Shown here: in pieces, positions 12,710 to 50,966 of the stretch
How the letters are laid out: every line of letters begins with the position of its first letter
Numbering within the stretch: position 1 is the stretch's first letter
Origin: Escherichia phage FS2B
DNA length: 58,790 nucleotides
Direction: 5' to 3' (one strand)
Sequence record: MW929182
Notes under the pieces: model-generated
What the model was told of the DNA's origin: nothing
The model's input: the letters and a program-made list of their open reading frames with translations, nothing else
Databases searched by the model: none
Translations under genes and position numbers: made by a program

Positions 12710-14365
12710 ATGCAACAGACAACTTACGCTCAGGTCAGAAGTCGTGACCCGAGAAATACTTTCTATGGTGTTAATCCGGGAGCGGCTTCGGCCTCTCCTT
12801 ATATGGCTAGACCAACTCAGACAGCAGATATTTCTATGTATCAACGTCCTGCTGTACCTTCATCTCTTGCGGGTCTTGTCTCTCAGGCAGAAGAAGATCA
12901 GACTGCTATGGTTAATCCGGGATTCCAGCAACGTCTTATGGAACAGCAGAATCAAGGAACTCCTACAAGTCTTCAAGGTATTGATATTGGAGCACCGGCC
13001 CCTGTAGCGTCTAACCCTAACCTATCCACTGATCAAGGTTTACAGGATGCTGGGCTTATGCCTAGTGACCCTCTTCCGGTAACACCTCCTACTAAACCGT
13101 TAGAAGCTGGTCCTATGGAGTTTACTCCTTCTCAGGTGGAACAGGCACAAGGTGTGATTAATACTCTTGCTCAAGGACAAGATACTGGTGATGGAATGGC
13201 TGCTGCTACTCGTGCTAAAGATCAGGAACGTGTTAACAATGATATCTTGCAAGTTGCGAAAGCTAAAGACCCTTCGGAAGCTTGGAACAAGCTACAGAAA
13301 GAACCATTCTATCAGAACTCTAGTTTCTACACAGGTTTGATGGGTGTAGGTCTTTCCATTATGTCAGGTAAGTCTCCTATTGAAGCTTTCCAGATTGGTC
13401 AGGGAATGGCTAATCAAGATGAGACTAAGAAGCAACTGGAAGCTAACCGTGATGCTCTGATTGAACAAGGCTTCTCTCAAGACTCGATTGCAGCTGCTAT
13501 TGCTAACGGAGACCCATCTCTACTGAAGATGAGAGCTGTAGACCCTGCTCAGAAAGAAGCGTTGTATGCTGCTCGTGAAGAACGACAAAATGCTGAATGG
13601 GATAGACGTCAACAGATTCAAGAGCAAACTATGCGTGAGCGTGCTGATGAAACTCGTCGTGCCGCTGAAGAAAGAGCTAACATGAACTTTGAACGTCAGA
13701 AAGAGTTGATTGGTTATCGTGATAAGGTTAAGGCTGAACGTGCTGAACAAGCTGCTCAGAGTTTTAACTTTAACCCGAAAGAAGTTCGTCTTGCTCAGAA
13801 TACAGCTGAAGGTACGGTTGCTAAGCAGTGGGCAGAGAAAGGTGGCCTGTTTAACCAGTCTAACAAAGACTTGGATTTGGCTGATAAGGCTGTTAAGGAT
13901 AAAGACTATCAGACAGCTCGTTCTGCTTACATGCAGGCTATCATGAACTCCGCAAGGGCTGAAATCGGTGCTACTCGTTCTCTTACCGAAGAAGACTTGG
14001 GGCACTTTGCAGAAGACCCATCAATCTTCGTTCGTGTTGGCAACAAGTTTGCACTGAAATCTGGATGGCGTCCTACTGATTCTGCTCTTGCTTATGCTCG
14101 TAAGCAAGCTAACGTTGGTCACACCTCTGCAATGAAAGGTGTTGCTGATGCTAAGAGAGCTACGATTGAAGCTTACATCGGTTCTGGTATGGATAAGAAG
14201 AGAGCTACTGCATTGGTTAACCGTGCAATCCCTTCTGGTGGTTTCTATGACCCTCTAGGTGTTTTCTCTGAACAAGCAGAAGAAGCAGTTGGTGGTGCAG
14301 CAACCAATCCTAAGCTTAATGGTGCTTTATCAGCTGTCGAAGACACTAGCTGGTTTACTCAATAA
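12710..14365 (+). CDS. putative internal virion/ejection protein
   Basis: AGGAGA RBS; Pro/Gln-rich N-terminus and charged helical C-terminus; located in the ejection-protein-like block. Confidence 0.4.
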   Translation: MQQTTYAQVRSRDPRNTFYGVNPGAASASPYMARPTQTADISMYQRPAVPSSLAGLVSQAEEDQTAMVNPGFQQRLMEQQNQGTPTSLQGIDIGAPAPVASNPNLSTDQGLQDAGLMPSDPLPVTPPTKPLEAGPMEFTPSQVEQAQGVINTLAQGQDTGDGMAAATRAKDQERVNNDILQVAKAKDPSEAWNKLQKEPFYQNSSFYTGLMGVGLSIMSGKSPIEAFQIGQGMANQDETKKQLEANRDALIEQGFSQDSIAAAIANGDPSLLKMRAVDPAQKEALYAAREERQNAEWDRRQQIQEQTMRERADETRRAAEERANMNFERQKELIGYRDKVKAERAEQAAQSFNFNPKEVRLAQNTAEGTVAKQWAEKGGLFNQSNKDLDLADKAVKDKDYQTARSAYMQAIMNSARAEIGATRSLTEEDLGHFAEDPSIFVRVGNKFALKSGWRPTDSALAYARKQANVGHTSAMKGVADAKRATIEAYIGSGMDKKRATALVNRAIPSGGFYDPLGVFSEQAEEAVGGAATNPKLNGALSAVEDTSWFTQ

Positions 14366-14432
14366 GACCTAAGTCCTGCCTTCTATAATGTATATAGGGG
14401 GTAGGACATTTTTATTTATAAAAGGAGACGTT

Positions 14433-41534: not shown

Positions 41535-42728
41535 TTAGTAGTTTACAACAGTGCCATCATTCAGGGTAAGACTGTTAATCTGCAACACACGACCAAGCTG
41601 GCGATCACCAATCGGTGCATTCCACCCAGAGCGGTAGAAGTTACGACCACAGAAGAACAAGATCACATTACTTGCTACAGTTGAGCCATTCTCAGGGTGC
41701 TTGATATTAGCGATGTAATAACCACGACGTAAAGTACGACGGGTTACAGGGTTGATCTCTAACCCTTGTTCTTCCACTTGCATTGTTTCAGGAACAGGCT
41801 CCGAAGACTCTTCAACAACTGGTTCAGCTGTCAATGCAAAGTTCTCGTCATCTGCTGATTCAGCAAACTCTTCCACTTCTTCAACAGGCAGTTCGTAAGC
41901 AACGCGGTAGTCAGGATCAACACCAGAGAAACTCTTAACAAACTCAACGATGTTGTGAGTGTAAGTTTCCAGAGTTGTTCCAGTCAGGCCCGGAGCTGTA
42001 TTAACTTCCAGAACCCAAGCGTTAGTACCTTTGCTAATCAGGTCAACAGCACCGAAGTTCAAACCCAGAGCAGATACAGCTTTGTGGGCTTGAATCAGAA
42101 CCTGATCAGGCGGCGCATCTTGGAAGTTTGAGGAATAAACCCAACCAGTATGATGGTTTCGAACGTCTTCACGATAGGAAGGATCTTCACGATAACCATT
42201 ACGGCGAATCTTTTTCTGAACATAGGTGATAACACCTTCAAACACATGAACACGCCATTCACGACGTGGGCCTAGAATGCCACGGGTATAGAGGGGGGCG
42301 GGAGCTACACCTTCACCCTGAAGACGAACAGTGATACCTTCTCCAGAATGACCATTCAGAATAGCACGTTCATAAACAACACTATCCAGAGTCCACTCTG
42401 AAGCCTGAGCAGCACTGTTTGTGTATTCTACAGTATGTACCCCAGCAGCTTCCAAAGTTTGAAATGCTGTCATTTTGTTAGCGGCTCGGTTCAAGGCAAC
42501 CACAGAGTTCAATACAGTTGCACCACCAAAGAAAGCATCATTATATCGACGGTTTCCATAGTTGACAACAATATCACCAACTCGAGAACGATAACGAGAG
42601 CCTTCTGATACCAGAGACATTACGTTAGCATTTAAGCGAAGTTCCTGAATCTTAGTGTTAATTGCAGAAGTAAGTTCACGAACTGAATCAGAAGGGCCAT
42701 AAGGAAGAACACGGATACGAGTAGTCAT
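41535..42728 (-). CDS. ATP-grasp ligase (RimK-like) with acidic C-terminal extension
   Basis: VVYERAILNGHSGEGITV, EWRVHVFEGV, VRNHHTGW and FGAVDLI...WVLEVNTAPGL follow the ATP-grasp motif order. Confidence 0.7.
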   Translation of the reverse strand: MTTRIRVLPYGPSDSVRELTSAINTKIQELRLNANVMSLVSEGSRYRSRVGDIVVNYGNRRYNDAFFGGATVLNSVVALNRAANKMTAFQTLEAAGVHTVEYTNSAAQASEWTLDSVVYERAILNGHSGEGITVRLQGEGVAPAPLYTRGILGPRREWRVHVFEGVITYVQKKIRRNGYREDPSYREDVRNHHTGWVYSSNFQDAPPDQVLIQAHKAVSALGLNFGAVDLISKGTNAWVLEVNTAPGLTGTTLETYTHNIVEFVKSFSGVDPDYRVAYELPVEEVEEFAESADDENFALTAEPVVEESSEPVPETMQVEEQGLEINPVTRRTLRRGYYIANIKHPENGSTVASNVILFFCGRNFYRSGWNAPIGDRQLGRVLQINSLTLNDGTVVNY

Positions 42729-50360: not shown

Positions 50361-50530
50361 ACTTACTCCTGTTGTTTACACTCGTCAATAACCCACTGAT
50401 AAGTGGATTGCCCAGAAAAGAAACACTGAATAAATCCAGATGTTCTCTGCGTTACCAGTGCTAGTGCACAAATCACTACCGCTGCTGCTAGCAGTTTTAA
50501 ATCTAATTTAGACATATTTCCTCTCGTTGA

Positions 50531-50559
50531 ATTTAAAAAAGGACTCTCCGAAAAGAGTC
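50531..50559 (-). terminator. intrinsic terminator
   Basis: Minus-strand hairpin GACTCTTTTCGGAGAGTC followed by CTTTTTTAAATT. Confidence 0.55.
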
Positions 50560-50619
50560 AAGCTTTAAATACAAAAAGATATTACCCAATATCTGTGGAT
50601 AACCTGCTCTTAAAATATC

Positions 50620-50750
50620 TATCCGACGGATGTTCGAGGAATGTTCCTCTCCCTAGCATCGGCCCCATACGGGAAATATATTAAGATTAGGTTAGTTGAG
50701 TCAGAATAACTCACATAGCCCTCCGAAGAAGGCTATAGGCGTTACTACAA
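50620..50750 (-). repeat. conserved intergenic element, copy A (second copy at 55943..56050)
   Basis: Identical blocks CGGATGTTCGAG, CTCCCTAGC and CTCACATAGCCCTC in the same order as copy B, plus a conserved hairpin ATAGCC(CT)...(AG)GGCTAT. Confidence 0.5.
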
Positions 50751-50966
50751 CTAAAAGTCACTTGATTCTACAAAAGCATCACTAAGGATTTCGTCAATTT
50801 CTTTGTTAGTCAAATCTTTCCTGAACCAACAACAAGGTACATCCACCCATTGACCAGAGTTGTTTTCTACAGAGCATCTATTGCCTGTCTTACTCTTGCA
50901 CTTATAGGTTTTACCTTTGTCTAGACGATAATGTATTCTGTGAACGATCGACACAAGCGTTATCAT
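50751..50966 (-). CDS. hypothetical Cys-rich small protein
   Basis: Track ORF on the coding strand. Confidence 0.35.
   Translation of the reverse strand: MITLVSIVHRIHYRLDKGKTYKCKSKTGNRCSVENNSGQWVDVPCCWFRKDLTNKEIDEILSDAFVESSDF

Follow-up and report, generated by a model that had tools for sequence, protein, structure and literature searches.

Two paralogous copies of a predicted structured RNA in the early region of Escherichia phage FS2B and their possible role in terminator read-through

Two related intergenic elements and their RNA structure

The DNA analysed here, in the following called the window, comprises 58,790 nucleotides (nt) of Escherichia phage FS2B (sequence record MW929182) and is 95-98% identical to the DNA of phiEco32-like coliphages (Kuravirus, Gordonclarkvirinae). 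PhiEco32 and the Salmonella phage 7-11 serve as models for the takeover of host RNA polymerase by a sigma factor. In the part of the window that is considered here every gene lies on the minus strand, and two of the intergenic regions contain a related element, which is therefore read on the minus strand as the sense strand. On the phiEco32 map, copy A is flanked by phi32_91 and phi32_90, and copy B by phi32_113 and phi32_112. An initial annotation, made from the letters alone, had noticed three blocks that are identical between the copies, and this holds true: exact matches to CGGATGTTCGAG are confined to 50627-50638 and 55943-55954, exact matches to CTCACATAGCCCTC lie at 50710-50723 and 56012-56025, and CTCCCTAGC is present in both copies, with the same order of the blocks. 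Likewise correctly described were a stem ATAGCC..GGCTAT that is kept while its loop differs by copy, reading AUAGCCUUC-UUCG-GAGGGCUAU on the minus strand of copy A, and a start 13 nt behind the upstream stop codon, as the TAG of gene 50751..50966 (minus strand) is located at 50753-50751 and the first hairpin, H1, begins at 50737. All these parts are present, but the element is larger than three blocks and one stem, since four hairpins and a closing helix belong to it, together with a long-range helix in copy A (Table 1).

Folding of the minus strand gives the same series of elements in both copies. It opens with a conserved 5' flank, AGUAAC, which often contains the stop codon of the upstream gene, followed by H1 (AUAGCC...GGCUAU, with a UUCG loop in copy A) and the directly adjoining H2 of the general form UGAG...CUCA. 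Behind an A/U-rich joiner that includes UAAC follow H3, a hairpin of three base pairs (bp) with the loop G/AUAU, and Pc, a 5-bp helix closing an 8x8 internal loop (5' GCUAGGGR / 3' RAACAUCC) that is largely purine-rich and capped by H4 (GAGN...NCUC). The joiner of copy A and that of the Salmonella-phage version are predicted to pair with the linker behind Pc (UAACCU-AGGUUA, UCUUAA-UUAAGA and AUAUUU-AGAUAU), thereby enclosing H3, Pc and H4. This long-range helix is predicted independently by folding in the window, in 7-11 and in pSal-SNUABM-01, and its middle segment contains three covarying pairs. As H3 and the Pc/internal loop/H4 domain are kept in Citrovirus-type members whose H1 and H2 are other hairpins, they form the core of the element. 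The folding z-scores are -4.25 for the full copy-A leader and -4.48 for the 7-11 version.

For a structure and covariation check across related phages, as the initial annotation had proposed, 38 instances of the element (36 distinct) were collected from phage records, IMG/VR and metagenomes. In the model-based alignment of the 36 distinct sequences 96.6% of 930 cells are paired and 11 of the 28 pairs show compensatory changes, i.e., changes on both sides; the covariation score is 0.317 versus at most 0.069 with partners slid by 1-3 columns, in an alignment fitted to the structure, which favours this score. RNAalifold recovers H1, H3, Pc and H4 independently, and the differences can also be seen in plain MAFFT alignments. 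The closing helix Pc reads CCGAU/GUCGG in copy A and UCGGU/GCCGA in the Salmonella phages; copy B has either ACACC/GGUGU or UCACC/GGUGA, and a divergent contig has AAUAGC/GCUAUU. Three pairs of Pc are changed on both sides, and a fourth shifts from U-G to C-G between the copy types. The fourth pair of H4 is G-C, C-G or A-U. Moreover, the loop nucleotides flanking H4 covary (A-G in 22 sequences, C-A in 12, A-A in two and C-G in none), and this non-Watson-Crick pair switches within each of the A, B and Salmonella lineages, independently of all other columns. By the Leontis-Westhof tables, this set of combinations would presumably fit a sheared (Hoogsteen/sugar-edge) pair. Many pairs are U-G, where the opposite strand would have C-A mismatches, and thus the structure is specific to the minus-strand transcript. 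Both the compensatory changes and the strand-specific G-U pairs support the earlier proposal of a structured minus-strand RNA, as well as the statement that the conserved blocks are not sigma-70 promoter hexamers. Copies A and B are thus paralogous members of one structured RNA family, which is new and has strong comparative support.

The genome-wide search for more copies that had been suggested was run with the covariance model R1. It found exactly two sites in the 58.8-kb window, copies A and B, with everything else at E >= 0.2. R1 had been trained on 33 sequences, both window copies among them, and their scores are therefore partly given by construction; the independent result is that there is no third site. 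With Rfam 15 at the gathering threshold, the tRNA at 54556-54628 is the only match in the whole window, and E-value scans of both intergenic regions to E 10 returned one meaningless match with 13 bits versus a cutoff of 219 bits. The element thus belongs to none of the Rfam families, among them tRNA, known riboswitches, ribozymes, GlmY/GlmZ, 6S and EAR (eps-associated RNA). An ARAGORN search for tRNA and tmRNA genes gave tRNA-Arg only; this gene (anticodon TCT, 54553-54628, minus strand) lies between copies A and B. The element is unmentioned in the literature searched, which did not include the two primary phiEco32 papers.

An unrecognised coding frame in paralogous genes, which the initial annotation had named as the case that would speak against an RNA, is ruled out, as stops are present in all six frames of both copies. 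No open reading frame (ORF) of at least 40 amino acids (aa) crosses copy A or B, and the lengths of the element among homologues (123-138 nt) differ by numbers that are not multiples of three. A promoter CTGACT-18-TATATT inside copy A was rejected as well, since it is kept neither in copy B nor in Suseptimavirus nor in the Salmonella phages. Promoters dependent on gp36 (tAATGTAtA, 6-8 nt before the start) are absent from the minus strand of both intergenic regions when at most one mismatch is allowed, the nearest gp36-type match being located at 50929-50937 on the plus strand within a gene.

Table 1. Coordinates of the element and its neighbouring features in the window
Feature	Position	Strand	Basis or remark
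Copy A core (AGUAAC 5' flank to AUAGA)	50618..50746	minus	covariance model R1, 140.8 bits, E 4e-27 (in training set)
H1, copy A (UAUAGCCUUC-UUCG-GAGGGCUAUG)	50714..50737	minus	folding; eight pairs 100% paired, two with compensatory changes
H2, copy A (UGAGUUA-UUC-UGACUCA)	50697..50713	minus	folding; in relatives U-A to C-G and U-G to U-A
A/U-rich joiner, 5' strand of long-range helix (UAACCU, UCUUAA, AUAUUU)	50674..50696	minus	folding and covariation
H3, copy A (CCC-GUAU-GGG)	50664..50673	minus	100% paired; stem CCC/GGG, GCC/GGC or GGC/GCC by lineage
Pc (CCGAU/GUCGG), internal loop (GCUAGGGA / GAACAUCC) and H4 (GAGGA-ACAU-UCCUC), copy A	50623..50662	minus	
3' strand of long-range helix, copy A (AGAUAU, UUAAGA, AGGUUA)	50600..50622	minus	
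DnaA box, exact TTATCCACA (TGTGGATAA on plus strand)	50594..50602	minus	match to TTWTNCACA
Small hairpin AGAUAUU-GGGU-AAUAUCU	50577..50594	minus	phiEco32-like (Gordonclarkvirinae) A-type only; absent in 7-11
Intrinsic terminator with extended lower stem	50527..50574 (stem 50559..50542)	minus	stem GACUCUUUUCGGAGAGUC, then CUUUUUU
phi32_90 homologue, 50 aa, first gene downstream of copy A	50363..50515	minus	
Copy B core	55935..56058	minus	covariance model R1, 108 bits, E 4e-20 (in training set)
Copy B parts	H1 56045..56017; H2 56016..56000; H3 55984..55975; Pc/loop/H4 55974..55939	minus	
Copy B 3' extension	55696..55934	minus	about 240 nt, reaches start of phi32_112 homologue
Extension hairpin with GGGG loop	55905..55882	minus	
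H5, loop UAGGGGUA	55870..55843	minus	covariation seen by eye in alignment
H6, long hairpin	55828..55744	minus	covariation seen by eye in alignment
phi32_112 homologue, 46 aa, basic N-terminus, first gene downstream of copy B	55555..55695	minus	
Strong terminator after phi32_112 homologue	55545..55522	minus	

Occurrence among phages and neighbouring sequences

With copy A as query 103 phage records were matched, all of which cover at least 80% of it; about 97 are phiEco32-like phages of Escherichia or Shigella and six are 7-11-like phages of Salmonella, which belong to a different family (Grimontviridae). Homologues are present in every phiEco32-like genome retrieved, and copy B also occurs across phiEco32-like phages. 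In 7-11 the element is found at the equivalent position, in the order gp112, element, annotated terminator, and endolysin and amidoligase cluster, and no second copy was detected in this phage with either model and filters off. A blastn comparison of 40-58.8 kb of the window (18.8 kb) with 24 kb of 7-11 gave five matches, four of which lie in enzyme genes and the fifth of which is the element; it is the only non-coding DNA still alignable between the two. Divergent members were found in a Citrovirus-like contig (56.7 bits, E 1e-10), where Pc is wholly different (AAUAGC/GCUAUU), in Klebsiella phage KpnP_VR7901 (E 7.5e-5) and, weakly, in CVT22. The internal loop of these Citrovirus-type members reads GCUAGGGA/UCACCAUCC in KpnP_VR7901 and GCUACG/CCUCC in CVT22. 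All three phage groups, phiEco32-like, 7-11-like and Citrovirus, encode their own sigma factor and an amidoligase/glutamine-amidotransferase cluster, and in each of them the element lies upstream of this same enzyme cluster.

Several further observations concern the distribution of the element. The contigs JBOFGJ010000684.1 and CALKAR010000070.1, which are binned as Flavobacterium and Peptococcaceae, carry the element together with phage-type early genes and are probably phage contigs that were mis-binned into those assemblies. In copy A of Suseptimavirus, H1 carries copy-B-type sequence, which suggests an exchange between the two copies. The AGUAAC at the 5' edge of both copies (56046-56058 and 50738-50746) is the point where the upstream genes diverge between related phages, and the element may mark a recombination or module boundary. 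In the Crifsvirus ECO319P1, an Escherichia phage, a hairpin UUUAUAGGG...CCCUAUGUGA followed by UUCUCAACUAA (14324-14408) is similar to the part of the element that comprises H1, H2 and the joiner, with which it has CUAUGUGA and CUCAACUAA in common unchanged; the region lies directly upstream of the ATP-grasp gene, with a model E of 0.68, which is not significant. An apparent 353-nt gap upstream of the endolysin gene of Cronobacter phage 009 seems to be an ORF missing from the annotation. The third long early intergenic region of the window (52974-53263, minus strand) was tried as a third copy and is structured but not a family member (E 0.35 in phiEco32). It starts with TAAGTAAT and contains several stable hairpins, of which one has the loop UACG, the string ACUAAC, a terminator (53052..53033) similar to a terminator sequence of 7-11 (35983..35965), and a promoter-like TTGAAT-17-TTATAT ahead of the next gene. 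Pattern matches in five other retrieved sequences lie in unrelated contexts and are due to chance.

Copy A runs into an invariant GGTTATCCACA, the first half of which is the 3' strand of the long-range helix. The DnaA-box-like sequence that the initial annotation had placed beside the element is exact on the minus strand and kept as far as 7-11. As a sequence match it is invariant in all 22 A-type sequences, and the window has just one other exact copy. A pairing partner for its UCCACA half was sought and rejected, as there are only shifting 4-bp options, and the box itself may well act as DNA. The linker including this box (50577-50615, minus strand) has a match of 36/40 nt in the nrdD-treC intergenic region of E. 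coli, about 14 nt upstream of the nrdD start and in the orientation opposite to nrdD, which was detected in 399 of 5426 E. coli genomes (E <= 0.01). This likeness suggests a shared protein-binding DNA site; literature on the match was not found. The intrinsic terminator, also recognised earlier, has a stem followed by CTTTTTT and is kept in phiEco32-like phages through to 7-11; its stem shows a compensatory change, and the 7-11 record lists it as a terminator. The ribosome-binding site of the phi32_90 homologue starts about 16 nt after its U-run.

Copy B is followed by a long extension whose conserved hairpins carry the G-rich loops GUAGGGGUAC and CUAGGGGUAG. AGGGGU-type loops are also seen in Citrovirus-type members (KpnP_VR7901 and contig JBOFGJ010000684.1), in a hairpin right before the next gene, and together with the GGGU at 50577-50594 in copy A this looks like a recurrent motif. 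The apical module of H6, about 60 nt long (55754-55817, minus strand), is present in the window, phiEco32, KBNP1711 and 4E8 and missing from NJ01-like phages, LAMP, ECBP2 and EK010. It holds a 30-nt stretch, TCGGCAATGAGTACGCGGTCAGGGTTAGTC, that is identical to the nutL-gene N leader of the P22-like Salmonella phage SEN22, and about 27 P22-like records match the module. A possible mini-ORF (ATGAGTACG...) with a Shine-Dalgarno-like sequence lies within it. The downstream phi32_112 family falls into PHROG families of unknown function and has its N-terminal motif KRMNRP in common with gp135 of 7-11 (37845-38024), which adjoins a gene annotated as a Q-like antiterminator. The idea that gp112 is an N-like arginine-rich protein was rejected, since no protein family matches it and Citrovirus has unrelated genes downstream, and it is at most a lead.

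Leader position and possible control of early transcription

The initial annotation had considered copy A as a structured 3' region of gene 50751..50966. This is unlikely, since relatives have other genes upstream (homologues of gp91, gp92, gp93 or ECBP2_0090) and the same downstream gene and terminator. For both copies the upstream gene varies, whereas the downstream gene, the phi32_90 or phi32_112 homologue, is constant, and therefore the element belongs with the downstream gene as a leader and not as a 3' tail. Between copy A and gp90 no conserved promoter was found, and the next strong sigma-70 consensus on the minus strand lies 8 kb downstream (42568..42540). This near-consensus promoter (TTGTCA-17-TATAAT, 11/12) precedes an ATP-grasp gene, and a predicted promoter is located at the corresponding position in 7-11. 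In SU10 and phiEco32, sigma-70 early promoters are confined to the far right end (upstream of CDS125 and between CDS120 and 121), and early transcription possibly extends to the middle genes (PMC4281155). The early cluster is regarded as a single long operon (PMC4331800), and for 7-11 only two validated early promoters, upstream of gene 151, and no middle promoters are reported (PMC8948821). Genes beyond the early block of 7-11 would thus have to be transcribed on time by some other means. The long early operons of phiEco32 and 7-11 contain intrinsic terminators, which the polymerase therefore has to pass, and this is the basis of the mechanism that we prefer.

From position and context, we tentatively favour the idea that copies A and B are a cis-acting element governing terminator read-through in the manner of nut or put, although our confidence in this function stays a little short of half. 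The RNA would be transcribed on the minus strand within the long sigma-70-driven early operon, would act in cis on host RNA polymerase, either directly or via a bound phage or host factor or ligand, and would decide between stop and read-through at the terminator that follows. For copy A, the target would be the conserved terminator 60-90 nt downstream, right before the ribosome-binding site of the gp90-to-gp81 genes (amidoligase, glutamine amidotransferase), and in the case of copy B the terminator that follows the small gene 112. That read-through is needed for the downstream genes, and is controlled by the RNA, is our inference.

Several findings weigh against this mechanism. Copy B is without an adjacent canonical terminator. 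In 7-11 the single copy lies about 18 kb downstream of the validated early promoters, with terminator-like sites upstream of it, and thus the element there is not a general antiterminator for the whole operon. Privateervirus, Libingvirus and Crifsvirus, which belong to the Grimontviridae and have the same gene cluster, gave no significant match, and neither did the Citrovirus phage Pecta of Erwinia. Sequence similarity to put, nut or EAR was not found, nor was a match in Rfam. Finally, no conserved antiterminator pairing between element and terminator was detected, which argues against a classical riboswitch or attenuator but not against a nut- or put-like action.

A stronger version, which we consider unlikely, is that the element represents a new class of polymerase-reprogramming RNA, whose internal loop would bind polymerase or a factor and switch read-through, with the adjacent DnaA box adding an input from host replication. 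If true, this class would be common to Kuravirus, 7-11-like phages and Citrovirus, all bearing the sigma factor and amidoligase cluster, and would allow read-through into delayed-early and middle genes, thereby supplying the timing mechanism that is missing in 7-11.

Among the alternatives, a processed stable small RNA acting in trans by base pairing or protein sequestering, with copy A cut 5' of H1 and ending at the terminator, is improbable but has several features in its favour. The terminator of the terminator-ended small RNA proposed by the initial annotation is real, and the layout of gene stop, structured conserved RNA and terminator fits. The U-tract of this terminator is able to pair with A-rich sequence upstream of it, which would close the 3' end. 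On the 5' side, H1 is a strong hairpin whose loop is UUCG, and a ProQ/FinO-family protein is encoded a few kb upstream in 7-11-like phages. However, copy B and the Citrovirus-type members have the core without a canonical terminator, and therefore a terminator-ended small RNA is not the common function of both copies. For CUAACCUAAUC, the candidate single-stranded seed, pairing within the long-range helix is predicted; the element goes with the downstream gene, and, because the upstream gene varies, it has no conserved promoter of its own.

We give still less weight to a processing or stability site, at which RNase III or RNase E would split the early transcript and protect the upstream 3' and downstream 5' ends. 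RNase III sites in T7 early mRNA and in the lambda N leader are the model for such a site, and the intergenic location within a long operon, the abutting upstream stop codon and the stable hairpins would agree with it. Furthermore, part of H6 of copy B is homologous to the nutL-N stem of a P22-like phage, and the corresponding lambda stem is an RNase III site. The core helices, however, are short (3-10 bp), well below the approximately 20 bp preferred by RNase III, and an invariant internal loop with a covarying non-canonical pair exceeds what a cleavage site or stabiliser hairpin needs.

Slightly less probable again is a riboswitch, in which Pc, the internal loop and H4 would form the aptamer, e.g., for a ligand of the amidoligase/glutamine amidotransferase/ATP-grasp pathway, and the terminator the expression platform. 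The order of an aptamer-like conserved loop, linker, terminator and ribosome-binding site speaks for it, as does the position upstream of the same enzyme cluster in the phiEco32-like phages, the 7-11-like phages and Citrovirus. Nevertheless, a conserved antiterminator alternative was not found: the terminator-antiterminator test gave only complementarities of 4-6 nt (AAGAGC with GCUCUU) in some lineages, which are not kept in 7-11 or pSal. Copy B stands ahead of an unrelated 46-aa gene without a platform, the internal loop differs in Citrovirus, as a ligand pocket does not usually do, the same enzyme cluster is found in related phages that are without the element, and no riboswitch class of Rfam matches. 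An element that acts as DNA, whether as an origin of replication, a site bound by DnaA, a promoter or a hot spot of recombination between modules of genes, is very improbable: the perfect DnaA box within the nrdD-like stretch and the coincidence of the 5' edge with the boundary of upstream gene differences are in its favour, but the box is absent from copy B and the Citrovirus members and thus cannot explain the shared core, the G-U pairs and compensatory changes are strand-specific, and there is no conserved sigma-70 or gp36-type promoter motif. An origin at copy A was rejected separately, as there is no GC-skew inflection near 50.6 kb and the skew follows gene orientation.

Whatever the mechanism, the element is well supported as a new RNA family: its covariation is clear, a non-canonical pair covaries as well, and the distinct sequences number at least 36. 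The family could be taken up in RNA family databases and in phage annotation, in which both intergenic regions are blank at present. As a conserved RNA right before a conserved terminator, and as the sole non-coding DNA alignable between the window and 7-11, the element is a concrete and mutable candidate control point for the read-through that we propose.

Comparison with known RNA elements

The element shares single features with several known systems. Like the small RNAs of enterobacteria that derive from 3' untranslated regions and end at a terminator, copy A is located between a stop codon and an intrinsic terminator, but the element follows the downstream and not the upstream gene, and copy B is without a terminator. 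With riboswitches and attenuators of the terminator type, it has in common a conserved structured domain, an intrinsic terminator and the ribosome-binding site of a metabolic operon; it differs from them as no conserved alternative pairing was found, the loop varies by phage group, and copy B has no platform. The EAR of Bacillales is also a structured RNA of about 120 nt between genes of a long operon, for which terminator passage has been proposed, whereas it occurs in another group of organisms, has another structure, and is a family to which the element has no match in Rfam.

Similarities to the nut sites are seen at both copies. The order of gene stop, RNA site, terminator and next genes at copy A is that of lambda nutR-tR1 and also of HK022 putR, while copy B, which has a long stem and then the gene of a small basic protein behind it, resembles the nutL-N leader of lambda and P22, part of this stem being homologous to the N leader of SEN22. 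On the other hand, no conserved boxA (CGCUCUUUA-like) or short boxB hairpin is present in the element, which has no boxB-type hairpin of 15 nt, and an N homologue was not found among the neighbouring proteins. A boxA-like UGCUC.AACA is seen in some copies and is not kept in phiEco32-like copy A; GCUC.AACA occurs only where the 3' arm of H4 is GCUC (copy B and the Salmonella type).

The put RNAs of HK022, putL and putR, are cis-acting, factor-independent antitermination RNAs of about 70 nt. They differ from the element in that there is no sequence similarity, the element is bigger (about 125-165 nt) and has a conserved internal-loop domain, and both of its copies lie in one direction of transcription. 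Common to both systems are two paralogous copies of a structured RNA in early transcription, located after a gene or promoter and before terminators, with structure kept more than sequence and two directly adjacent hairpins, here H1 and H2. In the window, this put-type layout is seen as two copies with conserved structure and a terminator following each, the one directly behind copy A and the other behind the phi32_112 homologue (Table 1).

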